Positions 11,526 to 56,034 of a stretch of DNA of 64,000 bases are shown in pieces (the stretch's first letter is position 1; each line of letters starts with the position of its first letter). Location of the stretch: NCBI GenBank assembly GCA_046346845.1, contig JAXMHH010000002.1, positions 426,747 through 490,746 on the forward strand. Reading direction: 5' to 3'. Below the pieces are notes generated by a model. It saw only the letters and a list, made by a program, of their open reading frames with translations, was not told the origin of the DNA and did no database searches. The translations under genes and the position numbers were made by a program. Origin of the DNA: a bacterium (GTDB lineage Bacteria; UBA10199; DSSB01).

Positions 11526-14333
11526 ATGGAAATTTCGGCTCAAGGTTGGCCGCTCCCGCTGCGCCAGGAATGGGACTCGCTGGCGCGCGAGTCGGACCCC
11601 GACCTCTACGCGGAGGGGCTGCTGGATTTCGCCCGCCGCCAGGAGCGGGCCGGGCGCCTGGAGCTCGCCGTGGAGCTCTACCGCCGCCTGGCCGACGCGC
11701 CCGACCTGGCCCCCGCCCTGCGGCAGCGCGCCCGCCAGGGCCTGGATGCCATCCTGGGTCGGGGTGACTTCGGTCCCCGAGCGGAGTTCTTGCTGCGAAC
11801 CTTGGCCCAGCAGGCCAGCGAGCCCAGCGCCCTCCTCGCGATGGGTGCCGCCGGTGCGGCCTTTCGCCTGACGCGCCTGGCGGCGCTCTCCCGCTTGGCG
11901 GCGTCCCCGCGTCCTTGGTGCTTGGCACGGCTGGTCGGCGCGGGGCGGCTGGCCTCGATCGCGGGTTTTGCGGTGGAGGCGCCGACCTTCACCCTGGTCG
12001 GCCGCCTGGGGCACGAGGCCTTGGGGCGCGAGCAGGATTGGAGCGCCCGGGGCTTTGGCCGCGATTTGGCCTCGAGCTACCTCACCCTCGGTGGGCTGAG
12101 GTTGGTCGGGGGTCTGGCGACGCGGTGGGGCCGAGGCCAGGCTCCGGTCTTGCGCGGCCTCCTGCAAGAGGGCGGGATGCTCAGCGGCATCCTCCTCGGT
12201 CATCGCCTGGAGGAGTGGGCGGGTCTGCGGGAACGCCCCAGCGGGGCGACCACCCTGGTGGATTCCTTGGCCCTGCTGCTGCAGTTCCACGTGGCCGGAG
12301 GCCTGAGCCGCGCCGCCTTCGGGCCGCGCTGGGCCGCTTGGGAGCGGGGGCTCGACCTGCAAGGCGAGGCCCTGGGGCAGACACTGGAAGCCCCGCGGCG
12401 CCTCGCGGCCGCGCCAGCGCCGGCGGGTGCGGCCAGGATCGAGCTTCCCACCGTGTTCATGACCCAGGGAGGAAACGAGGGGGGCAACGGGAACCACGAG
12501 GGGCGGGGCGGGCGCCCGCGCAGCAATCGGCCGACCTTGGCGGGAATGGCCCCGGGGCCCAAGTCCAGCGCCCCCACCGCCCCGCCGGCGCCGCCCTATG
12601 CCGAGGAGTCGCCGTTTCCATTGGCCGACTTGGCGCCGGGCACCCGCCTGGTCCGCGCCGGCAGCACCCTGTCGGCCTCTACCAATACCATGGCGCATCT
12701 CCTCGAGGCCCTGGAGATCTACTTCCGGCATTACCGCGATCCGGTGGTCCTGCGGGTCGATGGCCGGGTGAGCCTGGACGTTCGTCAACTTGGGGTATTG
12801 CGGGTTGAGCTGCATCGCCTGTTTCGGGAGCACGGGGTCCCCGAGGGGACTCGGGTTTCCCTCCTCTTGCCGGCCGAGCAGGAGGTTTGGCATTTCCAAA
12901 AAGGGGGCCTGACCTTTGAGGCGAGGCGGGAGTCGTTGGTTGCCGCCGACCGCAAGTCGACCTTGCCCGCGCCACCGCCGGCCATCCCCACGCCGCCGCC
13001 TCGGCCCAGCGCCTCCATCCCCACCCCGGTCCCCTTTCGCGCGGACAGCCTGGTGGTGGAGGACTTCGAGGGCGTGAAACAGGCCTTTCGTCGCCTGATG
13101 GCGGGGCTGGATACGGAAGTCCTGCTCAGCCCCGCGGTTCGCCTCAACCGGGGCCGCGTCGAGGAAAAGGGCCTGCAGGCCCTGGCCGACATCTTGAGCG
13201 AGCACCCCCTGCCGGAGGGCCGGAAGATCTCCGTCTTTTGGGTAGAGGGCGGGGGAGGGACTTTGAGCTTCCAGCGCCAGGGGGAGCTCGTCCGCGCGGA
13301 TTGGAAGGCCTATAAGATTCCGCCGGAGACCTATTGGTTGGTGCCGGTGGCCTCCCGCCTGGGACAGATGCAGGTCTATCGCGCCTCGGCGCTGCCGAGC
13401 TATCCCGGGGAGGGATACCGCGGCTACGAGGTCGCGATGGAGGCGGAGACCAAGGCCTTGTTTTCGCGCCTCGCCCACCCGGGGGTTTGGGAGCAATGGG
13501 TGGGACGGGAAGAGGGAGCGGCCCGCCGGGGGGAAGGCTGGGCCCGACTCGCCTCGCATTGGCTCAAGGAGAACGCGAGTCCAGGGAAGACCCTGAGCCC
13601 CGCAGCCCAGGAGACTTTCTTAAGCCTCCACCGCATGCTGGAGCGCTCCCAGGCCTACCTCGACTTGGGGGCCTTGCAGCGCTTCCGTGATCGGCTCGGC
13701 GCGGCCAAGCTGCGGGAATACGATGAGCAGGTCGCGCGCTTCAACCGAGGCCGCCTCACGGCGGGTCTCGAGCAATTGATCCCGCTCGGCGAATTCGGTT
13801 CGCGGCAGCTCGGGGATTATGTGGTCCCGCTCAGCGATCACCTGCGGGCGGTATTCTGCGAACAGCTCTTCAAGAGCCGCGGCGGGTCGCGGATTCCGCT
13901 CGAAAACAACGCCCTGCTGCGCGATCCGCTTCGGCTCGGCGCTTTGTTTCGCGAGACCCTGCGCGTCCGCGCCCTGCCCCTCTTGGCCATCCACAAGATG
14001 ATCCAGCTCCAGGGCCTGGGCGAGACACCCGGCAGCCTGCTCACCCGCAGGCGCGAGGAGCTTGGCGATCACAGTCGGAAGCTGAGGGACGATTTCGAAT
14101 TCTTTCTCGCCGAATGGCCGGAGTTTGGCCGAATCCTGAGGGGTGGTGCCGGGTCCTTCCATCGCACCCTGCTCGCCGAGGTCTTCGAGGGGCCGCAATC
14201 GGTCCGCGATCTCTACCAGCAGGTCCTGAAGGTGCTGACGGCCTTGCCGCCGGCGGAGCGGCGCTCCCGGCTCCTCGACACCCTGCCCGAGTGGGCGGAG
14301 CTGGGCAACGCCCTGCGCGGGTCTCGGCCCTAG
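11526..14333 (+). CDS. Array member 3: module plus duplicated small alpha/beta unit and helical tail
   Basis: Module 11590-12370; junction LPTVFMTQGG; Pro-rich linkers. Confidence 0.8.
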   Translation: MEISAQGWPLPLRQEWDSLARESDPDLYAEGLLDFARRQERAGRLELAVELYRRLADAPDLAPALRQRARQGLDAILGRGDFGPRAEFLLRTLAQQASEPSALLAMGAAGAAFRLTRLAALSRLAASPRPWCLARLVGAGRLASIAGFAVEAPTFTLVGRLGHEALGREQDWSARGFGRDLASSYLTLGGLRLVGGLATRWGRGQAPVLRGLLQEGGMLSGILLGHRLEEWAGLRERPSGATTLVDSLALLLQFHVAGGLSRAAFGPRWAAWERGLDLQGEALGQTLEAPRRLAAAPAPAGAARIELPTVFMTQGGNEGGNGNHEGRGGRPRSNRPTLAGMAPGPKSSAPTAPPAPPYAEESPFPLADLAPGTRLVRAGSTLSASTNTMAHLLEALEIYFRHYRDPVVLRVDGRVSLDVRQLGVLRVELHRLFREHGVPEGTRVSLLLPAEQEVWHFQKGGLTFEARRESLVAADRKSTLPAPPPAIPTPPPRPSASIPTPVPFRADSLVVEDFEGVKQAFRRLMAGLDTEVLLSPAVRLNRGRVEEKGLQALADILSEHPLPEGRKISVFWVEGGGGTLSFQRQGELVRADWKAYKIPPETYWLVPVASRLGQMQVYRASALPSYPGEGYRGYEVAMEAETKALFSRLAHPGVWEQWVGREEGAARRGEGWARLASHWLKENASPGKTLSPAAQETFLSLHRMLERSQAYLDLGALQRFRDRLGAAKLREYDEQVARFNRGRLTAGLEQLIPLGEFGSRQLGDYVVPLSDHLRAVFCEQLFKSRGGSRIPLENNALLRDPLRLGALFRETLRVRALPLLAIHKMIQLQGLGETPGSLLTRRREELGDHSRKLRDDFEFFLAEWPEFGRILRGGAGSFHRTLLAEVFEGPQSVRDLYQQVLKVLTALPPAERRSRLLDTLPEWAELGNALRGSRP

Positions 14334-17969: not shown

Positions 17970-20471
17970 ATGTTTCCTACCCTAGTTGCCTCTGAAGGCG
18001 GGCTTACCCGTGCCTTGCCGGAGGCCCGTGTCGCCATCGCCCCCGCGATTCTAGCTAGAATTTTCGACCGTCGCCTCTTTCCGCAGGCCGATTCCGGCCC
18101 GGTGGAACAGGCCCTGGGCCGCACCGCGGAGCTGCGAGCGGCCCTCGCCGAGCTCCCTGCGGCCCAAAGCCTGGCCTTGCGGGCGAGCTTTGGAGAGGCG
18201 GCGCTCAGCGAATTGCTCAGCCTGGCCGGGGAATCCGATCCGGCCCTGTTGCACGAAGCCCTGCTGAGCTTTGCGGGCCGGCAGGAGACCTCCGGACGGG
18301 TCGAGATTGCCGCCGAGCTCTACCAGAGCGTCGTGGCGAATGCCGGGGCCGGCTCCGCCTTGGGCCGAAGGGCCCAGGCGAGGCTCGATGCCATCCTCGG
18401 CCGGGGCTCGGTTGCCTTGCGCGGCGAATACCTGCTCCGCAACCTCGCGCAGCAGGCCTGCGAGCCCAGCTCCCTGCTGGCGATGGGGGCGGCAGGCACG
18501 ATTTTTCGCGCGACGCGCCTCTTGGCCCTCAGCCGTTTGGCAGCGAGCCCCACGGCCAATTTCCTGACGCGGGGTTTCGGGGCCAGTGCCCTGGCGGGTT
18601 TGGCCGGTTTCGCGGTCGAGGCGCCCGCCTTCACCCTGAGCGGCCGGCTGGCGGCGGAGGCCCTGGGGCGCAGCCAAGATTGGAGCGGGGAGGCCCTGCG
18701 CCGGGACCTGCTCTCCAGCTACCTGGTCCTGGGGGGCTTAAGGGCGGCGGGCTTTGCGGGTGCCGGGCTGTACCGGCGCTTCGGCGGCTCCAGCGAATTC
18801 GCCCGAGGCCTCTTCGCCCAGGGCAGCATGCTGACCGGGATCCTGGGCGCCCATTGGCTCGAGACGCGCTTTGGCCTGCGTCCCGCCACCGACCGCGCCA
18901 ACACCCTGGTTGATTCCCTGGCGACCTTGCTGCAATTCAACGTCGCCGCCCGCTTGAGCCACCAGGCCTTCGGGCCCCGCGTGGCGGCCTGGGAGGCCGC
19001 CTTGGACGCCCAGACCCAGCTGGTTGCCGCAACCAATTTCCGCGCCTCCGGACCCCGGGGTCCGGGCCTCAGCCCGGCCTACGCGGTGGCGGGCGGCCGC
19101 GCCCCCGAGGCGCTCCGCGAACCGGAAGATCCGCTCGGCCGGGGTCTGCAAGTCCTCATGTCCAAGATGCACGACGGTAAGGGCAATCCCGGGCCGACCG
19201 GACGCCGCCTGGCCCCCGGGGAGGTCGGCGAGGGGGGCGTAGATCCCAGTCAGTTAGATAGGCAGATCTCCACCTTGCTACTCTCGGCCGGCGATAACCT
19301 CGAACGCGGCCTGCGCACCTTTATCGACGGCCTCCCCGTGGCCACCGCCGTGGCCCGCCTGGAACGCGGCAATAAAGACATGGGCCGCATCTTCATGGTG
19401 AATCGGAGGTTTCAGGAGCTGTTCGGCTACACCGAGCGAGAAATCGGCGAGCTTCCCCTCATCAAGTTTTACCACCCCCTCAAGAGCGCCTTTGTGCTGT
19501 CGCAGATCTGGAACATCTTCCGTAACGGAATCTTCCGCCCCAGCGATATGGAACTGAGGCATCGGGATGAGGGTTGGGTCAAGGTCCGCGGCAGCGGCGT
19601 GGTGAAAGACCTGGGCGACCACTCCATCGCCTTCGGATTTTTGGAAAACCGCGCCGAGGCCAATGAGGGACGGCAAAGCCAGATCCTGGCCGCCTTCGAA
19701 GAGTCGAAGCGACCCCAAGCGATCCGCACTGCAGCCGACGGACATGTCGAGGTGGGATCGGTCATCGAACTCAGCTCCCTCTTGACCCAAGATAATTCGG
19801 CCTTGCTGCGGCAGATCGTGGACCAGGATGTCCGCATCCGCATCACGAATATGCCTTGGGTCCAGGCCTCCGACGGCTATGCCGAGCCCTTGGCCCGTTT
19901 TTTCAATGTCCAAGACCGGAAATTCTCATTCCCCGTCGGACGGAGGGTGTCGGTGGAGTTCCCACCCTCCGAGTCCAATGGCCGGGCGCGCACGATCATT
20001 CCCTTGGTGAAATTCGATTCTGGATTTCGCGCCATCGGATTCGGAGGGCCCGAGGCCAATCCGTCGGGAAATCCGGCGGGGACGGAGCTGCCCACCGCCC
20101 TCCCCCGGACCTCGCCTTCCCTGGCGGCGCCCGCCTTCGACAAGCCGCCGAGTCCCATTCCTCCGGCGGTCGTCGACGCCACCACCGCCGAGCTCTTAAC
20201 CAGGCTGCAAAGCCAAATGGGGGCCGCGGTCTTGGGCGCCCGCGAGGCCCTTTCGCAGCAGGATGCGGAGGTGACGGTGGCCGGGGAGTTTCCCGCCGCC
20301 TTTTTGAACCAAAACCTCGAGTCGATCCAGGGCGAGCTCCAGGCCATCACCGAAAAGCGGGTGCCCATCACCTTAGGGCGCCAGGTGACGCTGCGCTTTC
20401 ACACCGACCGGGGTCCCCTCACCTTGGTTTTTCGTAAAGTATTACGCAGGTTTGAGCGGGTGGACGGCTAG
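17970..20471 (+). CDS. Array member 5: module plus PAS domain plus alpha/beta units
   Basis: SD gaaagga. Module 18232-19020. PAS at ~19307-19657 (FIDGLPVA...VNRRFQELFGYTEREI...ELRHRDEGWVKV). Confidence 0.82.
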   Translation: MFPTLVASEGGLTRALPEARVAIAPAILARIFDRRLFPQADSGPVEQALGRTAELRAALAELPAAQSLALRASFGEAALSELLSLAGESDPALLHEALLSFAGRQETSGRVEIAAELYQSVVANAGAGSALGRRAQARLDAILGRGSVALRGEYLLRNLAQQACEPSSLLAMGAAGTIFRATRLLALSRLAASPTANFLTRGFGASALAGLAGFAVEAPAFTLSGRLAAEALGRSQDWSGEALRRDLLSSYLVLGGLRAAGFAGAGLYRRFGGSSEFARGLFAQGSMLTGILGAHWLETRFGLRPATDRANTLVDSLATLLQFNVAARLSHQAFGPRVAAWEAALDAQTQLVAATNFRASGPRGPGLSPAYAVAGGRAPEALREPEDPLGRGLQVLMSKMHDGKGNPGPTGRRLAPGEVGEGGVDPSQLDRQISTLLLSAGDNLERGLRTFIDGLPVATAVARLERGNKDMGRIFMVNRRFQELFGYTEREIGELPLIKFYHPLKSAFVLSQIWNIFRNGIFRPSDMELRHRDEGWVKVRGSGVVKDLGDHSIAFGFLENRAEANEGRQSQILAAFEESKRPQAIRTAADGHVEVGSVIELSSLLTQDNSALLRQIVDQDVRIRITNMPWVQASDGYAEPLARFFNVQDRKFSFPVGRRVSVEFPPSESNGRARTIIPLVKFDSGFRAIGFGGPEANPSGNPAGTELPTALPRTSPSLAAPAFDKPPSPIPPAVVDATTAELLTRLQSQMGAAVLGAREALSQQDAEVTVAGEFPAAFLNQNLESIQGELQAITEKRVPITLGRQVTLRFHTDRGPLTLVFRKVLRRFERVDG

Positions 20472-20569
20472 GCCAGCCCCGCCGCGAATCCAGGCAACCA
20501 ATTCTGGAGGGCGACGAGAAGACGGCACCGAAGCTTTAAAAAAATTTCGTAATTTCGAAAAGGTTCCCG

Positions 20570-22375
20570 GTGTCCGACTTGATTCTCGATCGCCTTCGCC
20601 CAGGGTTCCCGCGGGAACCCGCGCCGTCCTTCGCCTTTCAGCCCCGTGAAAGCGCGGGCTGGACCCCTGCGCTCCGCCGCGAGTTGGCTGTCCTGGCCGC
20701 GGAGAGCGACCCGCAGCTCTACGCCGAAGGGCTGCTCAACCTCGCGCAGCGCCTGGAAGCGGGGGAGCACCCCGAGGCCGCGCCGGAGCTTTATCAGGCC
20801 CTGTTGGAATCCCCCGTTCCCGGCATTTCCGCTCGGGCTCGAACCCGACTCGACGCCCTACTGGGGCGCGGAGCCGTCGGTCCGCGCCTGGAATTCCTGC
20901 TGCGCCGCCTGACGCAAGCAGCGACGGAACCCAGCGCCTTGTTCGCGATGGGCGCGGCCGGGGCGGTCTTCCGGATGACGCGTTTATGGGCGCTCTCGCG
21001 GCTGGTCTCCGCGGGCGAGACCGGTCTGATGACGCGGCTTCTGGGCCCGGGCCGGATCGCCAGCCTGGCGGGCTTTGCGGCGGAGGCGCCCGCCTTTACC
21101 CTGGCCAACCGACTGGGCCACGCGGCCCTGGGCCGGTCGCAAGACTGGGGCGGGTCGGCCCTGGCGAGGGAGTTCGCTTCCAGTTTTTTGGTCTTGGGCG
21201 CCTTGAAATTATCCGGTTCCGCCGCGGCTTGGTTGGGGGCCGGGCAGGCGGCGAGCCTGCGGATGGTGCTCCGGCAGGGCGGGATGTTGACTGGGATCCT
21301 GCTGAGCCATCGCCTGGAAGAGCTGGCGGGCCTCCGGCCCAGCCAGCCCGGTGCGACCCGCTTGGCCGATTCCCTGGCGCTCTTGCTGCAATTCCAAATG
21401 GCCGGTCGTCTGGTGGAGGCCGGCCTGGGGCGCCCGGGGAGCGCGGCCGAGGCGCACCTGGAGGCCATGGCATTGACCCCGCGGCCGAGTCTTCCTCCGC
21501 CCCTGGCGCTGTCCCTGGGCGCGGAACCGGCCCTGGCGAGCGCGGCGGGCCCAAGCCGTTCCGGCAGCCCGGCAGCGCCCCGCTTGTCGGCGGGCGTCTT
21601 CGCCATGGCGGCCGGCAAACCCTTGGGCGGGCATGGCGGGAGCACCGCTCGCAAGAGCCCGGGTGAATTGGTCGAGGAACATCTTCAGACGCTGAGCGAG
21701 GTACCGCCCGCCGATGCGGAGGCTGCGCCGCCCGCCATCGAGTTCCGTTTCGAGGGCGTGACCCTCACTCCTTCCGCCGAGCTCCGGCAGAGATTTTTCT
21801 GCGAAACCCTGCAGCGCCTCTTGAGCAAGGGGGAATCCGGATTTCCCTACCCCCTGCGCGGCGAACTCAGCCAGGCGCTGCGTTCCAATGCGGACCTGCG
21901 AGCCTCTCTTCCTGCGCTGGGTGAGGGGACGGAGCGCCGCTGGGTCGCGGACATCGCCGCCAAGGGCCATGAGCTGCGCCACCTGCTCCTCCTGGAATCG
22001 GAAGGAGGCGGTCCGTGGCGGCCCCGGCGGCTTTTGCTCGGGGCGCAGATCCTGCGCTACGACGAGAGCCAGGATCCGGCGGTCTACGACCTGGAATTCG
22101 GTCGCGGCGAGGCCCCGGAGATCCGGGGACGGATCTTTCGCCCCGACCTCCACGAGAGGTGGAACCCCGACGGCTACCTCAGCCGGAGTTTCTCCCCGGT
22201 GGGAGACGGCGACCTGAGGTGGGAACTCTATCCGAAAAGCTCCTACCTCCTCCGGCTTGAAATGGCGGTGGAGCCTCAGCTCCGCCTGCAGGTGTTGGAA
22301 TTGAGCGGGCATCGCCTCTTCTCGTTGGGCCCTTGGGCCCGGGCCGGCAACGGCAAGGGGAGGCAGGGGCCATGA
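20570..22375 (+). CDS. Array member 6: module plus unknown beta-rich cargo
   Basis: GTG start; module 20703-21470; junction GVFAMAAG; stop overlaps the next ATG (ATGA). Confidence 0.8.
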   Translation: MSDLILDRLRPGFPREPAPSFAFQPRESAGWTPALRRELAVLAAESDPQLYAEGLLNLAQRLEAGEHPEAAPELYQALLESPVPGISARARTRLDALLGRGAVGPRLEFLLRRLTQAATEPSALFAMGAAGAVFRMTRLWALSRLVSAGETGLMTRLLGPGRIASLAGFAAEAPAFTLANRLGHAALGRSQDWGGSALAREFASSFLVLGALKLSGSAAAWLGAGQAASLRMVLRQGGMLTGILLSHRLEELAGLRPSQPGATRLADSLALLLQFQMAGRLVEAGLGRPGSAAEAHLEAMALTPRPSLPPPLALSLGAEPALASAAGPSRSGSPAAPRLSAGVFAMAAGKPLGGHGGSTARKSPGELVEEHLQTLSEVPPADAEAAPPAIEFRFEGVTLTPSAELRQRFFCETLQRLLSKGESGFPYPLRGELSQALRSNADLRASLPALGEGTERRWVADIAAKGHELRHLLLLESEGGGPWRPRRLLLGAQILRYDESQDPAVYDLEFGRGEAPEIRGRIFRPDLHERWNPDGYLSRSFSPVGDGDLRWELYPKSSYLLRLEMAVEPQLRLQVLELSGHRLFSLGPWARAGNGKGRQGP

Positions 22376-24786
22376 CCTTTTTTCCCCACCTGCCGTCCCG
22401 ACCCCCCGCGGTACCCAGGGAGGCCTATCCCTCGCTGCCGGACACCGCCCTGCGGCAACTTCCGGAGCCGCTGCGAGGGGAACTCCTCGCCCTGCCGGCG
22501 GAACGGGACCCGGAACTCTACGCCGAGGCCCTCTATCATTTCGCCCAACGGCAGGAGCGGGTGGGCCGCCTCCCCTTGGCGGTGGAGCTCTATCAAGTCC
22601 TGCTCGCCGGGCCGGCCAGCGCCTACCGAAATCGCGCCCAACTCGCCCTCGACGCGATCCTGGGGCGCGGCGCCTTTGGAGCCCGGGCGGAGTTCTTGAT
22701 GCGAAATTTCGCCGAGCAGGCCAGCGACCCCAGCGCCCTGCTCGCGATGGGCGTAGCCGGGGCGGTGTTTCGCATGACGCGCCTGGCGGCGCTCGCGCGC
22801 TTGACCGGCTCGGTTCGGCCGGGACTGATGACGCAGTTCCTCGGGGCGGGCCGGCTCGCCTCGCTGGCGGGCTTTGCGGTGGAGGCACCGACCTTTACCT
22901 TGGTCCACCGTTTTGGCGATGCGGCCTTGGGTCGGTCCCAGGACCGAAGCGGGGAGGACCTGGCTAGGGAGCTGGCCTCGAGCTATTTGACCTTGGGCGG
23001 GCTCCGGCTCGCGGGTGCCGGCGCGGTGTTGCTGGCAGAGGGGCAGGCGGTTCCCCTGCGGCATCTGCTCCACCAGGGCGGGATGCTCACCGGCATCCTC
23101 CTCGGTCATCGCCTGGAGGAGTGGGCGGGTCTGCGGCCGCGGCAGGCGGGCGCCACGACCTTGGTGGATTCCCTGGCCCTACTGCTCCAATTCCACGTGG
23201 CGGGCCGCCTGAGCCGTGCGGCCTTCGGGCATGACTTCGCCGCCTGGGAGGCGGGGCTCGATCGGCAGGCCGAGCTTATGACACGCCCTCCGCCGGGTTC
23301 CGGCCCCCGCCCCATCCCGATTCCGAATCCTGCCCGGCGCTTGGCTTGGGCCAGTGGCGGTGCCGAGGTTCCGGTCCCCGTCGGCCCTACCGTGCTGATG
23401 ATGTCCGGCAGGGGGCGCGACGGCGGAGACGATTGGCGCGCAGGTCTATTTCGGGCCTCCAATTTGCGGCTTCGGATCAGTCCGGCCGATGCCTACCAGC
23501 GGCGGGCGGATAATGCGGCGGACTACGTCAAGCAGGTTCAGGAGCTGACGCCGGGACATGCGGGGGTCATGACCGAGATCCTGATGGGGCTCGACCTGTT
23601 CGGGTCTTGGCTGGAGGGCGGCGATCCCTTTCGCCGGGCCATCGGCTTTCGGCACCACGCCGAGCTGTGGCGGGTCTTGGCGAACAAGTGGACCCATGTT
23701 TCCCTCACGGTCTCCCTGACCGAGGCCTTTCGCGACCAGATCCGGCGCCAAATCCGGCTCCTGGCCCAGGGCTCCAACCAGCGCTTCCTCGCCGCGACCC
23801 TGGAGGGGGCGCCCGAGATCTCCCGCATCTACAGCCATACCCTGGGCGCCTTGGTGGAAGGCTCGCCGCGGGAACGCGAGTTGACCCAAACCCTCTTGGA
23901 TCTGCTGGCCGCCCTGCGCGGCGGGGCCTTGGCCCCCAACCCTTCTGTCCAGCGAGGGCTTTGGCTGGAGGCCTTCCACGCGAGCTTGAATTACGCGGCC
24001 AATGAGCGGCTCGGGTTCGCCCGGGAGGCCCTGCGCGGGATCCAGGGGACTCGGGCCTGGCTCGGCAGCGCCGACCCCGAGCGGCAACTCTTGGGACGCC
24101 GCTACTTCCCGCTGTTTTGGAACCGGCTGGCGGAGCGGGGTCATCCCGAACAAAAAGACCCCTTCCTCTCCGAGGTCCAAGAGGAAGTCGCCTTTCTGCA
24201 GCAGAGCACTTCGCCGCAACGGGTCCCGAAGGAGACCTTGTTGGCCGCCTTGCAGGCCTACCCCCACTACGCGGAATGGGTCTTCAACCTCCTGGGCGAT
24301 CACCCCCTGCAGGGCTACATGCTGCTCAACACCTTCCTTGGCCAGGCCCGCACCCTGCGGCCCTGGATCTCCGGCCACAGCGATGCGGAGGTCCGCGAGA
24401 CTTGCGCGGCTTCTTATTTAAGGGTTCTTTCCCGGTTGAATCGACAGGCAGAAGCGCTTCGCGACTTTCCTAACCTGCCGACCCCCATCGGCAGCGATAT
24501 CGTCGCCGAGGCCTGGGAGGGGATCCCGGTCTTTGAGCAGCGTTGGCAGGGCGCCCCGGGGCCGGATGCCATGATCTCGGCCCTCCGCGACTATCTGCAA
24601 CTGCTCGACCTCTTGCCGCCGGAGGCCCGGTTTGGTCGCGAGCTCAGCGCCGAGTCGCGCTTGAAACCCCTGGTCCGGCTCAGTATGCATCAAAATCCCA
24701 CGCTTCGGCGCCTTGCCGAAGATGCGATGGAAAAGATTCTGACGAAATTCCCCTCGGGACCGACCGAACCCTCGGGAGGCAACTGA
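22372..24786 (+). CDS. Array member 7: module plus helical cargo
   Basis: ATG 22372 overlaps the previous TGA; module 22500-23275; junction GPTVLMMSG. Confidence 0.8.
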   Translation: MTFFPHLPSRPPAVPREAYPSLPDTALRQLPEPLRGELLALPAERDPELYAEALYHFAQRQERVGRLPLAVELYQVLLAGPASAYRNRAQLALDAILGRGAFGARAEFLMRNFAEQASDPSALLAMGVAGAVFRMTRLAALARLTGSVRPGLMTQFLGAGRLASLAGFAVEAPTFTLVHRFGDAALGRSQDRSGEDLARELASSYLTLGGLRLAGAGAVLLAEGQAVPLRHLLHQGGMLTGILLGHRLEEWAGLRPRQAGATTLVDSLALLLQFHVAGRLSRAAFGHDFAAWEAGLDRQAELMTRPPPGSGPRPIPIPNPARRLAWASGGAEVPVPVGPTVLMMSGRGRDGGDDWRAGLFRASNLRLRISPADAYQRRADNAADYVKQVQELTPGHAGVMTEILMGLDLFGSWLEGGDPFRRAIGFRHHAELWRVLANKWTHVSLTVSLTEAFRDQIRRQIRLLAQGSNQRFLAATLEGAPEISRIYSHTLGALVEGSPRERELTQTLLDLLAALRGGALAPNPSVQRGLWLEAFHASLNYAANERLGFAREALRGIQGTRAWLGSADPERQLLGRRYFPLFWNRLAERGHPEQKDPFLSEVQEEVAFLQQSTSPQRVPKETLLAALQAYPHYAEWVFNLLGDHPLQGYMLLNTFLGQARTLRPWISGHSDAEVRETCAASYLRVLSRLNRQAEALRDFPNLPTPIGSDIVAEAWEGIPVFEQRWQGAPGPDAMISALRDYLQLLDLLPPEARFGRELSAESRLKPLVRLSMHQNPTLRRLAEDAMEKILTKFPSGPTEPSGGN

Positions 24787-24860
24787 GGCGGTTTTTCGAC
24801 GATACCTCGACGATCTCAATGCGTCATTGTGGAGCGGGGGGCCCTCCCAGGAGCCGAGCA

Positions 24861-27377
24861 GTGTCTCTACGTGTCCCCCATTGGAATCGACCTGCCCCCG
24901 AACGGGGGGAACTCCCCGCGACCGCCTCCTGGACCGCCTTGCTGAGAAACTGCCCCGATGCCGGCGCTCGCGCCGAGCTGAACTCCCTCGCTGCGGAAGG
25001 CGACGCTCAGCTCTTGGGGGAGGGCCTGCTGAATTTTGCCCAGCGGCAGGAACGCGACGGTCGTTTGGAACTGGCGATGGAGGCCTACCAGGCCGTCCAG
25101 ACCCTGCCGGTGGAAGCGCTGCGTCGCCGCGCCCAACAAGGCTTGGATGCCATCCAGGGCCGGGGCGACTTCGGTCCCCGCGCCGAGTTCTTGCTGCGCA
25201 ACCTCGCCCAACAGGCCAGCGAGCCGAGCGCCCTCCTGGCCATGGGCGTGGCTGGGACTGCCTTTCGCGTGACTCGCCTGGCGACACTTTCTTGGCTCGC
25301 CGGCGCCGGTGAGGCAGGCCTGGCGACACGGCTCTTGGGCGCGGGCCGAATCGCTACTTTGGCGGGCTTTGCGGTGGAGGCCCCCGCCTTTAGCTTGGCC
25401 GCTCGCCTGGGCAACGAGGCCCTGGGCCGACCGCAGGATTGGGGCGCCCGCGCCCTGGGCCGAGACCTCCTCTCCAGCTATTTCGTCCTGGGCGGCCTGA
25501 AGCTGGCGGGTGGCGCGGCGGGTTCTTTGGGCGCCGGGCGGCCTCGGCTGTTTCAGCATTTAATACACCAGGGCGGGATGCTCACCGGCATCCTCCTCGG
25601 TCATCGCCTGGAGGAGTGGGCGGGTCTGCGGCCGCGGCAGGCGGGCGCCACGACCTTGGTGGATTCCCTGGCCCTGCTGCTCCAATTCCATGTGGCGGGT
25701 CGCCTCAGTCGTGCCGCGGTGGGTCCTGGCCTCGGGGCCTGGGAGGCCAGCCTCGAGCATCGGGCCGCAAACCTGGCCTTGGGCCGAGGCCGTTCCAGTT
25801 TTCCGCAATTTCCCGGGCCGCCAACGCCTTCCTATGCCATGGCCTCCGCAATATCGGTGGAGGGTCCGAGGGGCGGGACGGAGGCGGGGCCGCGGATCCC
25901 CGACCGCCTCTATTCGGTTCGTCTCACCGGGGAAGCGGACGCTTCTTCCCCGACGACGGAATCCGCGGCGAACCTCCCGGAGGTTCGCGCCTTACCGGGA
26001 GGCCGGACCCGACCCGTGGATCGGGAGCGGCTGACTTCCATTCGCCTGATCGAGGCCCAAGGCGTGGCCTGGGTCATCGACATCGACACCGCTGAAAGAA
26101 ATCGGCAGTTGGAGGTTTGGGTGGGGGACCACCTCCTTCCGCCCGGCGGTTCCCTGCGAGTGCGGGAGGGTGAGGTGATTCGGATGGGGGACCGGAGCTA
26201 CCGGTTCCGCGAGATGGGCCCCGAGGCGGCGGAGGATTCGGGCAACCGCCTTCGGCAAGTCGTCGCCTTGCGCCGCCACCTGCACCACAGCTACGGCTCC
26301 GAAGGCGCGGCCCACTATGACCTGCAGCTGGGGGATTTTTTGGAGGGGATGGCGGCAGGAGAAGAAACGGTCTTTGCCACGGGTCCCTTGGGGACCGCGC
26401 GCCTGCGGGTTTTGAGTCGAGGTGCGGGCGAGGTCGGGGAGCGTTTCGACCTCGAGCTGCGCGACGACAGGAATTCCTTTCCCTTGAGCCTCGAGCTCGC
26501 CCCGGACCGGTTTCTCTATCATCATCCCCCGCGTCCCCAGCCCCGGCAGGCCCTTTTGCCGATGTTCGCCGATTGGGTGAACACCCATGCCATGATCCGC
26601 GCCGCTCAGCTGGAGGTTCGCGGCATCAGTCCCGAATTTCACGAGCTGCTCGAGCAAGGCTTGATCAACGGTAGCTACGATCGCCTGGAGGCCAGGGAGG
26701 GGCGGGTCGACCTGATCACCCAACCCCGTTCCATGCTGATCCCGCCGGAGTTCGGCCCTCAGCACCGCGCGGCCGCGGAGCGGGCCTTCCAGGCCTGGGC
26801 GCAGCGTCGCCTGGGGCGCACGATTCCGACCCTGGTGGAATTGGAGGAAGGGGTCCCGCCGCCGGAGTTCAATCACCTCGGCGTCGAGCCTTCCATGCAG
26901 GCGATCCTCGACCGCTTGGTCGACACGCGCAGCCGCTTTTTGGAGATCGGCTTCGGGGAGCGCACCGAGACCCTGGAGGCGGTGGAGCGGCGCGGTGGGG
27001 TCGCCTGGGGCCTGGAATTGGATCGCGTCTACCCGCCGGGCGCCGACCGAGCCCAGTTGCAGGCGGAGCCGGTGGATGTCCTGTTCGTCAACGGCTCGCC
27101 CTTCTTGTTCTATGCCCAACACCAGGTCGCCCTGCCGGCGGCCCTCGACATCCTCCGCCAATTTCCGCGCGCGGAGTGGTTGGTGCTGCAGGCTTACAAT
27201 CCGCGCACCCCCTTCGAGATCCTGCGCCATGCCGAGGAGCTCAATCGGATGGAGTGGGAGCCGCTCTATTTTCGCAGCCAGGCCGCACCGGACGAGGCAC
27301 CCCTCTTTCCCACCGACTGGTGCCAGAGGCCGGATACCGCCCATGCCGTCCTGATCGCCCGGCGGGTCCGACGTTAG
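24861..27377 (+). CDS. Array member 8: module plus degenerate FHA-like and SAM-methyltransferase-like cargo
   Basis: GTG 24861 with SD aggag (track start 24543 overlaps member 7). FHA-like tail LRVREGEVIRMGDRSYRF; MTase motif I-like RFLEIGFG, then GLELD and DVLFVNGSPF. Confidence 0.75.
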   Translation: MSLRVPHWNRPAPERGELPATASWTALLRNCPDAGARAELNSLAAEGDAQLLGEGLLNFAQRQERDGRLELAMEAYQAVQTLPVEALRRRAQQGLDAIQGRGDFGPRAEFLLRNLAQQASEPSALLAMGVAGTAFRVTRLATLSWLAGAGEAGLATRLLGAGRIATLAGFAVEAPAFSLAARLGNEALGRPQDWGARALGRDLLSSYFVLGGLKLAGGAAGSLGAGRPRLFQHLIHQGGMLTGILLGHRLEEWAGLRPRQAGATTLVDSLALLLQFHVAGRLSRAAVGPGLGAWEASLEHRAANLALGRGRSSFPQFPGPPTPSYAMASAISVEGPRGGTEAGPRIPDRLYSVRLTGEADASSPTTESAANLPEVRALPGGRTRPVDRERLTSIRLIEAQGVAWVIDIDTAERNRQLEVWVGDHLLPPGGSLRVREGEVIRMGDRSYRFREMGPEAAEDSGNRLRQVVALRRHLHHSYGSEGAAHYDLQLGDFLEGMAAGEETVFATGPLGTARLRVLSRGAGEVGERFDLELRDDRNSFPLSLELAPDRFLYHHPPRPQPRQALLPMFADWVNTHAMIRAAQLEVRGISPEFHELLEQGLINGSYDRLEAREGRVDLITQPRSMLIPPEFGPQHRAAAERAFQAWAQRRLGRTIPTLVELEEGVPPPEFNHLGVEPSMQAILDRLVDTRSRFLEIGFGERTETLEAVERRGGVAWGLELDRVYPPGADRAQLQAEPVDVLFVNGSPFLFYAQHQVALPAALDILRQFPRAEWLVLQAYNPRTPFEILRHAEELNRMEWEPLYFRSQAAPDEAPLFPTDWCQRPDTAHAVLIARRVRR

Positions 27378-27448
27378 GCGGAAAATACTGCCTTCTTTCT
27401 TGGTGAATTTGGAGTAAACTGGCCCTGCTTGTCCGAGAGGAGGAAGCG

Positions 27449-28147
27449 ATGTTTTCCGTCCGCAGGGCCGAAGAGCGGGGCCACTTCGATCACGGCTGGC
27501 TCAACACCTATCACACCTTTTCCTTCGGCGATTATTTCGATCCCCATTTTATGGGCTTCCGCGACCTGCGGGTGATCAACGAGGACTATGTCCAACCCGG
27601 CAAGGGTTTTCCCACCCATCCCCACCGCGACATGGAGATCCTCACCTACGTCTTGGCCGGGGCCCTCGAGCACCGGGACAGCATGAGCAATGGCTCCGTC
27701 ATCAAGCCCGGCGAGGTCCAAAGGATGAGCGCGGGCACCGGCGTGACCCACAGCGAGTACAACGCCTCGACGGAGGACCTCGTCCACCTCTTGCAGATCT
27801 GGATACTGCCCAAGGCCAGGGGCCAGGTCCCCAGCTACGAGCAGAAGCAGTTCCTGCCCGAGCAAAAAAAGGGAAAGTGGCTGTTGGTGGCCTCGCCGAA
27901 TGGCGTCCAGGGCTCGGTGACCATCCATCAGGACGTCTATGTCCATGCCAGCCTGGTGGCGCCCAACGAGGAGCTCTTCTACCAGGTGAGGCCCGGTCGC
28001 CATGTCTGGGTGCAGGTGGCCCGCGGCGAGATCCAATTGAACGGCGAGCCCCTGAAGGCCGGGGATGGGGCGGCGTTGAGCGAGGTGGCGACCGTGGACG
28101 TGCAGGGGAAGCGGGACGCCGAGGTCCTGCTCTTCGAGTTGGCCTAG
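27449..28147 (+). CDS. yhhW: Pirin family protein
   Basis: [47 protein letters not shown]. Confidence 0.92.
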
Positions 28148-29238
28148 ACGTTGAAGCGGAAATGCATGATGTCGCCGTCGCGGACGACGTAGTCCTTGCC
28201 CTCGAGGCGCAGCAGCCCCGCCTCTTTCACCGCCTGTTCCGACTTGTATTTCATGAGATCGTCGAAGTGATAGACCTCGGCGCGGATGAAGCCCTTTTCG
28301 AAGTCGCTGTGGATCACGCCGGCGGCCTGCGGTGCCTTCGCGCCCGTGGGGATAGTCCAGGCCCGGACCTCTTTTTCTCCGGCGGTGAAATAGGTCGAGA
28401 GATGCAGGAGCTTGTATCCGGCGCGGGCCATCCGGTCCAATCCGGATTCGTGCAGTCCCAAGTCTTCCAAGAAGGCCTTCTGTTCCGCCTCGGGGAGGTT
28501 GGAAATCTCGGCCTCGATGGCGCCGGAGAGCACGACGCAGGGCGCGCCTTCGCGCTCGGCGTGGGCGATGACTTTTTGCGCGGCCGGCCCTGGGTTGGCG
28601 GCCTCCGCCTCGTTGACGTTGGCCACGTACATGACGGGCTTGGCGGTCAGGAGGAAGAGCTCGCGCAGCGCCTCATTCTCTTTGTCGCTCAAGGCTATGC
28701 GGCGCACCGGAACGCCCTCGTTCAGGCCCGCTTGGACCTTCTTCAAGGCCTCCACCTCGGCGATCAGGTCTTTGTCGCCGCTCTTCGCGGCCTTGGCGCT
28801 GCGCTCCAGCCGCTTTTCGACGGTGGCGAGGTCGGCGAGCATCAGCTCGGTATCGATCACCTCGATGTCGCGGATCGGGTCGACGCTGCCCTCGACGTGG
28901 ACGACGTCGGGGTCCTCGAAACAACGCACGATGTGGGCGATGGCGTCGGTGTTCTTGATGTTGCCCAAAAATTGGTTGCCGAGCCCCTCGCCCTTGGAGG
29001 CCCCCTTCACCAGGCCGGCGATGTCGACGAACTCGACCGTGGTGGGGACCAGCTTTTGCGGCGGGATGTACTGGGCGATGCGCTGCAGGCGCTCGTCGGG
29101 GAGGGGCACGATGCCGACGTTCGGGTCGATGGTGCAGAAGGGATAATTCGCCGCCTGCGCCCCCGCGTGAGTCAGGGCGTTGAAGATGGTGGATTTGCCG
29201 ACGTTGGGGAGGCCGACGATGCCGCAGTTGAAGCCCAT
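28144..29238 (-). CDS. ychF: Redox-regulated ATPase YchF
   Basis: [46 protein letters not shown]-like tail [13 protein letters not shown]. Confidence 0.97.
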
Positions 29239-29303
29239 AGTGAAAACCTTTTTAGCACAGGTTCTTTTCCGAGACGAGTTCTCGGGGTTATTCGGGGAGG
29301 AAA

Positions 29304-30323
29304 TTATTTCTTCCGCTGGATGACATAGTCGCTGAGCTTCAGGAGGGCCTCCTTGGCGGGGCTGTCCGGAAGGGATTGCAGGGAGTCGCGCGCCGCCGCG
29401 GAACGCTGCGCGGCGAGGCCCAGGGCGTAGTCGATCGCGCCGTATTTTTTCAGCACCTCGAGGACCTTGAGGAAGATGTCCCGCCTTGCGCTGATCGTGC
29501 CGTCACGGATGATCTCGCGCTCGGCGGGGGTGCAGCGTTCCAGGGCGTAGAGCAGGGGCAGGGTGATCTTGCCTTCCTTGAGGTCGACGCCCTTTTCCTT
29601 CCCGAACTCGGCCTCGACGCTGATGTAATCGAGCACGTCGTCGGCCAATTGGAAGGCGATGCCCAGGTGCATGCCGTAGTCGGTGAGGGCGCGCTCTTGG
29701 TCGGGCCCGGCCTTGGCGATGATCGCGCCCACCTGGGTCGAGCAGGCCATCAGCACGCCGGTCTTGAACTCGATGATCTTGAAGTACTCCGTCTCGCCGA
29801 GCCGGAGGTCGCGGGACTTGGTGATCTCGAGCACCTCGCCCTCGGTGGTGTTGGTGGTGGCGTCGGTGATGCTGCGCAGCACCTTCAGGTCGCCATCGCG
29901 GGCGATCAAGGAGGAGGCTTGGCAGTAGAGGAAGTCCCCCACCAGGACCGACATCTTATTGTCCCAGATTGCGTTGCAGGAGGGCCGCCCGCGCCGCAGC
30001 TGGGCGTTGTCGATGACGTCGTCGTGCAGCAGGGTGGCGGTATGGATGAACTCGATGGCCGTCGCCAGGGTCAGGACCCTCGGCCCCCGGTAGCCCAGGG
30101 CCTGGGCCGCCAGGATGCAGAGCATGGGCCGCAGCCGCTTGCCGCCGCTCATCACGATGTGCTCGGCGACCTGGGTCACGGTGGGGACGTGGCTTTGCAG
30201 GTTCTTTTGGATCTCGACTTCGACCAAGGCCAGCTCTTCGCGCAATTGCTGGGCGAGGACTTCTAGGGCATCACCCGAGAGTGGTTCGGAAGGCGAAGGG
30301 CTGGGGACCGGACGTGAAGACAT
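29304..30323 (-). CDS. ispB: Polyprenyl (octaprenyl-type) diphosphate synthase
   Basis: [19 protein letters not shown]...[19 protein letters not shown]. Confidence 0.9.
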
Positions 30324-30460
30324 GCCAATGGGCTCGCGAAATTAGGTCGTTGGCCCGCCGGGATCGGCGGAGTTTACGGCGGGGGCCATATCCAGTAGGA
30401 TGGGCCCGCCGTTACCGTCCACAGGCGCTATCGAGCGCACGGAGGCTTGTCAAGGGAAGC

Positions 30461-31243
30461 ATGCTGACCATGCCCGCCAAGGCGATCCACACCGAATCCA
30501 TCCACCTGCCGGGTGGAGAGGCGGGGGTCTTGCTGCTGCATGGTTTCACCGCCACCCCGGATTCGATGCGCTATCTGGCCCAGGCCCTGAACCGGGGGAA
30601 ATTCACGGTCCTGGCCCCGGTATTGGCGGGACACGGCACTAAGGTGGAGCACCTCGAGCAGACCCAATGGCAGGATTGGTACCGCAGCGCGGAGGACGCC
30701 CTGCACGCCCTCCGGGCGGAGTGCCGGACGGTGATGGTGGCGGGGCTTTCGATGGGGGGACTGCTGGCCGCCCACCTGGCCTTTCACCACCGGCAGACGG
30801 TGCGGGCCCTGGCGCTCATGGCCACGCCCTTATTCTTGGACGGCTTCTTGATCCGAAGCGTCTTTCCCGCCGTCTGGAAGACCCCGCTCAAGCACTTCTA
30901 CAAATACCAGCCCAAGGGCATTGCCTCGATCAACGACCCGGCGGCGCGGCGCCGCTATCAGACCTACCACAAGGTGCCCGTGGTCTCGGTGGCCAGCATG
31001 CTCGAGCTCCAGCAGACGGTGCGGCAAGAGCTGAAGCACCTGCGTCAACCGGCGATCATCCTGCATTCCCTGCACGACGAGACCGTGCCCTACGGCAACC
31101 TCGATTACATCCAGGCGATCCTGCCTAGCGACGAGGTGGAGACGGTCACCCTCAAGAAGAGCAATCACATCATTACCCTGGATTACGAAAAAGACCTCGT
31201 TGCCAAGCGGGTGCTGCGTTTTTTCAAACGATTCCGGAAATGA
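30461..31243 (+). CDS. Alpha/beta-hydrolase carboxylesterase
   Basis: LLLHGFTA, LAGHGT, nucleophile elbow GLSMGG, HDETVP, SNHII. Start ATG 30461 or 30470. Confidence 0.88.
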   Translation: MLTMPAKAIHTESIHLPGGEAGVLLLHGFTATPDSMRYLAQALNRGKFTVLAPVLAGHGTKVEHLEQTQWQDWYRSAEDALHALRAECRTVMVAGLSMGGLLAAHLAFHHRQTVRALALMATPLFLDGFLIRSVFPAVWKTPLKHFYKYQPKGIASINDPAARRRYQTYHKVPVVSVASMLELQQTVRQELKHLRQPAIILHSLHDETVPYGNLDYIQAILPSDEVETVTLKKSNHIITLDYEKDLVAKRVLRFFKRFRK

Positions 31244-53903: not shown

Positions 53904-53946
53904 GTCGGGGCGACTGGATTTGAACCAGCGACTCCTTGCTCCCGAA
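53904..53946 (-). repeat. 43-bp duplicate of the tRNA-Pro 3' half (att site)
   Basis: Identical to 55960-56002. Confidence 0.9.
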
Positions 53947-54060: not shown

Positions 54061-55302
54061 TTAAGTCTCGAAGAATCTTTTTGCGGTGTTTTCGATTTCT
54101 GTGACAATTTTCGTTAAAGTCTTTTCTCCACCGAAATGTTCGGTGAAGAATTCAGCCTCACTTTTCGCGATACTAGGAAGTTCCTTTGAAAATTCGTTTA
54201 CTATCTTAAGGACGAACCTAGTGCCTACCCCTGCCTCTTGCGCAAAGGTTTCCCAGTGCCGCTCAAAAATATCCCTACGTTTATATTTCTCCCCGATCTT
54301 CATGGCCAATTTTTCTGAAAGGCCTTCATAGACTGAAGTCGACATGAGGTCATAAAATGGCGCCAGATGAACCCCTTCCGAGGAGATGAGAAGGGAAATG
54401 TTCTTTGCGTGGGCGTCGCAATTGCCAATGAGGAAGTTAAAGACCGCCCACGAAATTAGCCCCTTCTTGTCGACCGCCGGTCGTTGGCTGAATTCTTCCA
54501 CAACCCTAAAGCAGTCTGAAAATGAAGGTCCCCCTTCGCTTTGGTACTTTTGGTCGGGATATCTCCCTAAAGCTTGGCAAAAATCCTCCTGGTGCAAACG
54601 TTTGAGATTTGAGCGCGAAGCCCCTTCCCGATCGTATCGTTTGACCAGATAAATGGGCTTCTTTTTGCAAAAAATAATTTCGATGTCCGGCACTTCGAGC
54701 CCGATAGATCTCGCCAGTTTCATGCAAAAAGCTTCGTTGAATACGGTATCTTCAAAGTTAGGCATGGAGGGTTTAAGAATATGCGAGCTAGGGGCTCCAT
54801 CCTCTGGAAGGAAGAGTTTTTTGTCCTCATAAAAAACCGGCAACTTGTCCTGAACCCCTGCCAAGGATAAGCGAGCTTTTCCATCCGCCAGTAGTAAGGG
54901 ACGTCGAGGCATTTCACTGATCAGGTCGTCTAGCTCGGATTCGCTAAGCTCCCGATAGTTCCCATTTTTAGGTGGTGGTTGTTCTGCTGGATAAGTTGAA
55001 ATGGCTCCAGCGCACTCACCTCCCAGGACCGCTAACATTTCAAAATCATTGGTCGCTGATTGGCCCTGTTTTGCTGCGATGAGCTGGCGTACTTTCCCTT
55101 CCGGTAGGAGGTTAGAGAAAAAGGGTTTTGCAAAATCGTCTTCGAACGGTGCTTCCTGTAACGGAAGGCGGATGGAAAGAGGAAAGGGGTTTTGGTTTTT
55201 TAGCCAAACGGGATCGTATTGAAATACCCAGCGGCGCCTTTCATCGATAGTAAGCTTGCCGACATTATCGGAGTTGCAGAGCACAAAAAGAGTGGAGGTC
55301 AT
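54061..55302 (-). CDS. hipA: HipA family toxin kinase (N-terminal couple domain plus kinase)
   Basis: FFSNLLPEG, SLAGVQDK, HILKP, RLHQEDFCQAL, GNCDAHAKNIS, LAPFYD. Confidence 0.93.
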   Translation of the reverse strand: MTSTLFVLCNSDNVGKLTIDERRRWVFQYDPVWLKNQNPFPLSIRLPLQEAPFEDDFAKPFFSNLLPEGKVRQLIAAKQGQSATNDFEMLAVLGGECAGAISTYPAEQPPPKNGNYRELSESELDDLISEMPRRPLLLADGKARLSLAGVQDKLPVFYEDKKLFLPEDGAPSSHILKPSMPNFEDTVFNEAFCMKLARSIGLEVPDIEIIFCKKKPIYLVKRYDREGASRSNLKRLHQEDFCQALGRYPDQKYQSEGGPSFSDCFRVVEEFSQRPAVDKKGLISWAVFNFLIGNCDAHAKNISLLISSEGVHLAPFYDLMSTSVYEGLSEKLAMKIGEKYKRRDIFERHWETFAQEAGVGTRFVLKIVNEFSKELPSIAKSEAEFFTEHFGGEKTLTKIVTEIENTAKRFFET

Positions 55303-55943: not shown

Positions 55944-55960
55944 GTAGTTGAAAAAAATAG

Positions 55961-56034
55961 TCGGGGCGACTGGATTTGAACCAGCGACTCCTTGCTCCCG
56001 AAGCAAGTACTCTACCAGGCTGAGCTACGCCCCG
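55961..56034 (-). tRNA. tRNA-Pro(CGG), CCA not encoded
   Basis: cggggcgtagctcagcctggtagagtacttgcttcgggagcaaggagtcgctggttcaaatccagtcgccccga; anticodon arm cttgc-ttcggga-gcaag. Confidence 0.95.

Follow-up and report, generated by a model that had tools for sequence, protein, structure and literature searches.

Concerted evolution in bacteria is exemplified by the tufA/tufB genes and the ribosomal RNA operons. It is defined by paralogues that are more alike than orthologues and by stretches of homogeneity (PMC2720389), and the release-factor genes RF1/RF2 offer a bacterial example of gene conversion (PMC4530459). The PE/PPE families of Mycobacterium tuberculosis occupy about 10% of the genome and undergo recombination (PMC4770551), which has also been described for the PPE38 region (PMC2758852), and gene conversion between the adjacent tandem duplicates PE_PGRS17 and PE_PGRS18 is known as the ‘12/40 polymorphism’ (PMC1762029). 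The present analysis concerns a family of comparable layout in an uncultured UBA10199-type bacterium, as seen in a 64,000-bp stretch of its DNA (the window; positions 426,747 to 490,746 of contig JAXMHH010000002.1, here C2:426747-490746). Two neighboring genes of the window, m7 and m8, carry related N-terminal modules in which a tract of 110 bp is exactly identical. This tract is very probably a recent, short patch of ectopic (interlocus) gene conversion between the two modules, laid down within ongoing concerted evolution.

The family resembles PE/PPE in several aspects, which include its large size and GC-richness, a conserved N-terminal domain followed by variable C-termini, a share of several per cent of the genome (here at least 6.5%, counted as stop-to-stop frames), and a block of linked differences that appears to have been copied between adjacent tandem duplicates. 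Unlike PE/PPE, the modules of the window have no match to the PE or PPE Pfam families (PF00934 / PF00823) and form an all-helical domain of about 300 amino acids without a match in the Protein Data Bank (PDB). The C-terminal parts (cargos) are enzymes, sensors, regulators or unknown domains, whereas the PE/PPE tails are repetitive PGRS/MPTR sequences. The host is also of another kind, an uncultured bacterium represented by one assembly, whereas conversion in PE/PPE has been demonstrated with strain panels. PE/PPE may hence be taken as the closest analogue in layout and process, as an analogy only and without homology. Likewise, the m7 and m8 modules behave as members of concerted multigene families do, being closer to one another within a genome, clustering by genome in trees, and losing synonymous differences in discrete tracts. 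Unlike the classic cases, only one domain of a multidomain gene is homogenized while the remainder is unrelated; homology ends at the domain border, and conversion with it. The mechanism of conversion is well known and ordinary; it is the gene family that is unusual.

Gene m7 (22372-24786, plus strand; 804 amino acids, P0001) has its module at about residues 1-300, joined through a Pro/Gly linker to a helical cargo whose function is unknown, and its ATG overlaps the stop codon of the preceding gene m6 (ATGA). Gene m8 (24819-27377, plus strand; 852 amino acids, P0002) has the module at about residues 40-315 and likewise a cargo of unknown function, which is strongly conserved across other genomes. 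The tract lies at 23071-23180 in m7 and at 25566-25675 in m8, both on the plus strand, and direct sequence comparison finds no difference over the 110 bp. In the codon alignment of these adjacent, co-oriented paralogues, the two copies occupy homologous codons, namely codons 234-269 plus two bases of codon 270 in m7, encoding HQGGMLTGILLGHRLEEWAGLRPRQAGATTLVDSLA, and codons 250-285 plus two bases in m8. All 36 whole codons are the same, third positions included. The left edge is sharp, with 59% identity over the 100 bp upstream of the tract. On the right, the first mismatch stands at 23181; identity then stays near 87% over a shoulder that reaches to roughly 23219, and it is at random level beyond about 23270. 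The nucleotide identity of the two modules overall is about 65-72%, and outside m7 and m8 no further full copy of the 110-mer was found by BLAST in the whole 3.3-Mb genome. The initial annotation had reported the exact identity, the divergence of both flanks, a shared core in the upstream gene m3 and a location near the end of the module (residues 234-270 of m7, the conserved module ending at about residues 295-300). All of these observations were reproduced, and its reading of them, a recent conversion within the 3′ part of the module, finds good support in the two-sided patch and in the concerted evolution seen across genomes.

The strongest evidence comes from the profile of synonymous divergence. 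In Nei-Gojobori windows of the m7-m8 comparison, the proportions of synonymous and nonsynonymous differences (pS/pN) are 0.59/0.25 on the left of the tract, 0.03/0.00 within it and 0.52/0.23 on the right, and the synonymous divergence (dS) of the flanks reaches about 0.9-1.2; dS is thus not uniformly low along the module, whereas a uniformly low dS is what the initial annotation had named as contrary to conversion. Low dS inside the tract with high dS on both sides implies a patch and not a recent duplication or a single crossover. It could be argued that purifying selection on the protein together with codon bias, or a very recent duplication, produced the identity without any conversion, as the protein block that the tract specifies is the best conserved of the module. 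However, given the same amino acids, the chance that all 36 codons coincide is 10^-14 under the codon usage of the family, in which the per-residue probability of the same codon is about 0.3-0.6, and at 16 of the 36 positions the codon is a non-preferred one (at 20 it is the preferred one). The right shoulder serves as an internal control. Its 15 codons (23179-23223, plus strand; m8 partner 25674-25718) encode the same protein, LLLQFHVAGRLSRAA, in both genes, and 7 of the 15 differ synonymously; hence protein constraint alone does not yield nucleotide identity in this block. A recent duplication is further contradicted by the dS of the flanks and by the m7/m8 tandem, which together with its two cargos is older than the split of the four genomes compared below. 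Selection or duplication without conversion is accordingly refuted by the dS profile and keeps a probability that is practically nil.

A GENECONV-like analysis with 20 close paralogues led to the same picture. The identical run of m7 and m8 spans 91 polymorphic sites in a row, the overall agreement of the pair at such sites being 66%, and it exceeded the longest run in 500 of 500 site permutations for this pair, with an analytic estimate of about 1e-14. Global permutation p-values were inflated by a near-identical pair of family members on contig C7, and pairwise permutations and analytic estimates were used instead.

The tract also bears traces of other members of the array. Gene m3 (11526-14333, plus strand; 935 amino acids), 11-13 kb upstream, matches the first half of the tract at 61 of 62 bases (12169-12230, plus strand), a segment that includes an exact 46-bp core (12185-12230, equal to 23091-23136). 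The BLAST match of m3 spans positions 5-66 of the tract and stops abruptly at 66; its pairwise permutation p-value of 0.002 is the floor with 500 permutations. This match probably marks an older or nested conversion. The last 60 bp or so of the tract are 95% identical to another array member, C2:420081, which over the second half as a whole reaches about 87%. The 110-mer hence has a mosaic look, with its first 66 bp near-identical to m3 and its last 60 bp or so resembling C2:420081, and both signals are only moderately significant once corrected for the number of pairs.

Comparison with other genomes provides a second line of evidence. The genome under study (W) was compared with three assemblies, namely X (L020, JGI 3300020129), Y (L021, JASOAK010000009, UBA10199-1) and Z (L022, Logan SRR8427159). 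Searches with m7 and m8 returned full-length orthologues (46-61% identity, 94-98% coverage) in which the module is joined to the same cargo. Those of m7 are P0035, P0025 and P0069, and those of m8 are P0004-P0010 (53-61% identity, 94-95% coverage). Synteny is kept in X, Y and Z, where DUF4126, Macro, m5 (with a PAS cargo), m6 where present, m7, m8, pirin, YchF, polyprenyl synthase and hydrolase follow one another in the gene order of window 17970-31243, and m5, m7 and m8 have the same cargo in the same order in all four genomes. Gene m6 (20570-22375 in the window; a module plus a cargo of about 290 amino acids) stands between m5 and m7 in W and X (L020 5732-7549) and is absent from this position in Y and Z (L021, L022). 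This distribution implies the gain or loss of a whole module-cargo unit, which is what unequal crossing-over between modules would bring about.

With the orthologue groups fixed beforehand from cargo and synteny, and thus independently of the module, the paralogues within a genome prove to be closer than the orthologues, which is the mark of concerted evolution. The m7 and m8 modules share 67% amino acid identity in W, 83% in X, 80% in Y and 56% in Z, whereas orthologous modules among W, X and Y share 61-65%. Similarly, the fraction of identical codons lies at 56-61% where both modules come from one genome (W, X or Y) and at 38-55% for orthologues, with saturation at about 0.42 (the family-wide mean). 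In the maximum-likelihood tree of modules, m6, m7 and m8 cluster by genome (X m7 and m8 with support 100/99) and the m5 modules follow orthology. Approximately unbiased tests reject a clade of m7 orthologues (p 1e-50) as well as a clade of m8 orthologues (p 8e-38). The identity profiles show a broad block at 76-93% nucleotide identity between m7 and m8 of X, several windows at 91-96% between m7 and m8 of Y, and an exact run of 72 bp between m5 and m7 of Y, so that the mosaic pattern differs from genome to genome. The residues HRLEEW and TLVDS, which seem diagnostic of the direction of conversion when the tract is compared with m3, C2:420081 and the X, Y and Z sequences, are common to several paralogues of W, and the orthologues are themselves homogenized.

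The same pattern is replicated at a second locus of the genome, outside the window. The pair C7:117005/C7:119405 (region C7:116777-121507) shares a module core of about 600 nucleotides at 97-100% nucleotide identity, including an exact run of 202 bp in the module segment where the m7/m8 tract lies. To the left of the core the two genes remain homologous at 60-67% identity; to its right, from the module border onward, their cargos are unrelated. Orthologues of the two genes (A and B) are adjacent and in the same order in two genomes of the same genus (G001 and G004), in which the module cores of A and B are 67-71% identical at the amino acid level, versus 89-90% for the A-A and B-B orthologues; the A and B cores of W reach 98%. 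Among 2211 paralogue pairs of the genome, overlapping open reading frames aside, only m7/m8 and this C7 pair, each consisting of tandem neighbors, have exact runs of at least 50 bp. Runs of 30-49 bp without a mismatch occur solely in the C7 pair and among the C2 array members m3, m7, m8 and C2:420081, and shorter runs of 26-46 bp connect these four members of one array.

The recurrence of long runs at one place could also be explained by a functional nucleotide element within the coding sequence, such as an RNA structure or a protein-binding or recombination site, maintained in both genes by selection acting directly on DNA or RNA. Three independent longest runs (m7/m8 and the C7 pair in W, m5/m7 in Y) do fall in the same module segment. 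Yet the 110-mer occurs in only 2 of at least 67 members, the runs of the other pairs differ in sequence, and the X, Y and Z orthologues differ in this block. Synonymous sites are saturated across the 67 members, and the ratio of observed to expected same codons in the tract block is 1.03-1.21, as in other conserved blocks; a family-wide nucleotide constraint on the block was rejected on this profile. Within the tract, Rfam gave no match at E <= 1, and the RNA fold was no better than that of shuffled sequences (z = -1.0). Such an element is hence most improbable, falling a little below the artefact and cargo-exchange explanations weighed later. The sole Rfam match at E <= 1 outside the tract is a ZMP/ZTP riboswitch at 25336-25419 (plus strand), within the coding sequence of the m8 module; its score of 26.5 bits compares with a gathering score of 39 (E 0.22), and the match is almost certainly due to chance.

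Gene conversion between m7 and m8 could have proceeded as follows. A break or gap in one copy would have been repaired from its counterpart at a distance of 2.5 kb, and about 110-125 bp would then have been overwritten through heteroduplex repair or through synthesis. The transfer would have been non-reciprocal, with either m7 or m8 as the donor, and by analogy with established bacterial gene conversion the pathway was presumably homologous repair of the RecA type. The patch falls in the best-conserved block of the module, a predicted helix-loop-helix at residues 234-285. This block forms a homology island of about 150 bp, with a variable loop on its left and with the module end, the linker and unrelated cargo on its right, and it is plausibly at the edges of this island that the ends of several independent tracts pile up. 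The patch is regarded as the latest event in a continuing series, in which the m7 and m8 modules have been homogenized independently in at least three related genomes while the cargos stayed orthologous throughout. The net effect is a shared module that evolves in concert and a cargo that is not reassorted.

Certain points weigh against this account. The tract sequence rests on one assembly, as an exact 42-mer from the tract had no match (0) in metagenome contigs and m8 itself is present in the protein database only from this contig. No close strain, and with it no pre-conversion allele, was found; the nearest relatives are other species, about 50-60% identical at the amino acid level in the cargo, and ‘recent’ has a meaning only relative to a saturated background. 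Besides, the apparent preference for one block may partly reflect a detection bias, as a conserved protein gives longer exact runs.

The first of these points would fit an artefact of assembly or polishing, in which the reads of one paralogue correct the other or a consensus of strains yields a false identity. The 8 contigs for 3.3 Mb suggest a long-read assembly, and short-read polishing of such assemblies can in principle homogenize paralogous regions. However, the tract is in frame and sharply bounded by flanks at about 60% identity, and reads overlapping its edges would map unambiguously. A collapse would have deleted the 2.5 kb between the copies rather than created identity. Moreover, mosaics of this kind recur in three independent assemblies produced by other pipelines, as in the 72-bp exact m5/m7 run of Y and the m7/m8 windows at 76-96% in X and Y; the 600-nucleotide case on C7 has clean boundaries elsewhere in the same genome. 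An artefact is hence very unlikely.

A different role for recombination at the 3′ end of the module is suggested by the Rhs and contact-dependent growth inhibition (CDI, CdiA-CT) polymorphic toxins. These have a constant N-terminal part, a variable C-terminal tip and orphan C-terminal cassettes, which lack a promoter, lie downstream of the main gene and retain a short stub of the conserved region; homologous recombination in the conserved part is a proposed route of tip replacement. The present family is like Rhs/CDI in that a constant N-terminal part precedes a variable C-terminal part. By analogy, the tract could be a crossover junction for the reassortment of cargos, as in the switching of orphan cassettes, and the initial annotation had suggested that recombination here would allow cargo exchange. 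A constant module joined to more than 60 unrelated cargos does imply fusions somewhere in the history of the family; the tract ends close to the module border in m7/m8 and right at it in the C7 pair, and m6, which of the four genomes only W and X have at its position, is the sole hint of change in whole units and is compatible with unequal crossing-over that added or removed one. However, the tract has diverged sequence on either side, as expected of a patch and not of a single crossover, and overwriting a segment within the module leaves the cargo where it is. In all four genomes m5, m7 and m8 have retained their cargos and their order even as the m7 and m8 modules became homogenized. In direct tandem repeats, besides, a crossover would remove or double a unit and not exchange its cargo. 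Unlike Rhs/CDI, the array has neither orphan cassettes lacking a module nor immunity-like small genes in the gaps of about 30-100 bp between its genes; all members are full genes with their module complete, no toxin-like cargo was recognized, and the cargos are orthologous and stable in position across genomes. Cargo homology exists in 18 of 2211 pairs, and the pattern of cargo against module identity in these is not decisive. The suggestion of cargo exchange is therefore not supported, and its probability is as slight as that of an artefact. Rhs/CDI may serve as an analogy for this rejected reading only, their defining features having been looked for and found missing.

A broader proposal retains gene conversion and adds a cause to it. 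The helix-loop-helix block (residues about 234-285) may be a favored recombination substrate throughout the family, with homogenization selected for compatibility of neighboring modules (e.g., co-assembly into one scaffold), and with an occasional crossover that creates, deletes or re-pairs module-cargo units. If true, the favored block would be the engine of the expansion of the family to more than 60 different cargos. The facts that fit are the three to four independent longest tracts in the block, the presence of m6 in two of four genomes and the ending of tracts at the module border. The same facts are explained by detection bias together with simple limits of homology, and this proposal is considered unlikely, though less remote than the explanations that do without conversion.

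Gene conversion between m7 and m8 has several consequences for how the family is read. The tract is a marker that the modules of a very large uncharacterized family are being actively homogenized between neighbors while the cargo is kept over long evolutionary times. Module trees in this family are hence not readable as gene histories, and orthology has to be taken from cargo and synteny. The picture of an array with ‘swappable cargo’ is not supported at the m7/m8 locus. In addition, short-read assemblies of these organisms may break or be mis-joined at such tracts.

The family itself was delineated by tblastn in the 3.3-Mb genome, which is assembled in 8 contigs. It counts at least 67 full-length genes with the module at the N-terminus (e.g., C2:419829-454123; C7:116777-121507), eight of which lie in the window, where m7, m8 and six others have in common the N-terminal module of about 300 amino acids, a Pro/Gly-rich linker and unrelated C-termini. 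Across the family the tails range from about 140 to 4000 amino acids and are almost all mutually unrelated. Where cargo homology exists (the 18 pairs mentioned above), the identities of cargo and module are often similar, as whole-gene duplication predicts. In relatives, the cargos have Pfam matches to MBL hydrolase, GGDEF, sigma-70, amine oxidase, HATPase, PAS and ATP-grasp. The related loci come from metagenome-assembled genomes labeled Deltaproteobacteria or UBA10199-1, and no title among those listed of papers mentioning UBA10199 is about the module family.

The module of all eight window members has no match in Pfam or NCBIfam; m7 has none anywhere in the protein, and neither the m7 cargo nor the m8 cargo has a sequence match in the PDB. 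An AlphaFold2 model of the m7 module, built on an alignment of 92 sequences, is confident and all-helical (mean predicted local distance difference test score 85.9, predicted template-modeling score 0.74), without a fold match in the PDB (best E 0.47, template-modeling score <= 0.22). In this model the tract covers the end of a predicted helix at 227-251, a loop and the start of a predicted helix at 260-285. The module as a whole (22372-23430 of the window in m7, and the same for all members) is predicted to begin with a TPR-like part and to continue in six or seven long helices rich in Gly and Ala; these helices hold 3-5 charged residues each, which is unlike classical transmembrane segments.

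One further member may lie at the start of the window. The carboxylase-like open reading frame at 1-2892, open at its 5′ side, extends upstream as one stop-to-stop frame of 2464 codons (C2:422247-429638), and the N-terminal part of this frame, from about residue 120, matches the family module, with 52% identity to that of m7. The carboxylase thus appears to be the cargo of another family member.

Farther along the window, a stretch of 43 bp is perfectly repeated in direct orientation (53904-53946 and 55960-56002). The latter copy forms the 3′ part of a tRNA-Pro(CGG) gene (55960-56034, minus strand), and the roughly 2 kb between the repeats hold a gene for a toxin kinase of the HipA family (54061-55302, minus strand; HipA_C, E 4e-56). 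To judge from this arrangement, the segment 53904-56034 looks like a small islet inserted in the tRNA gene with att-like repeats.

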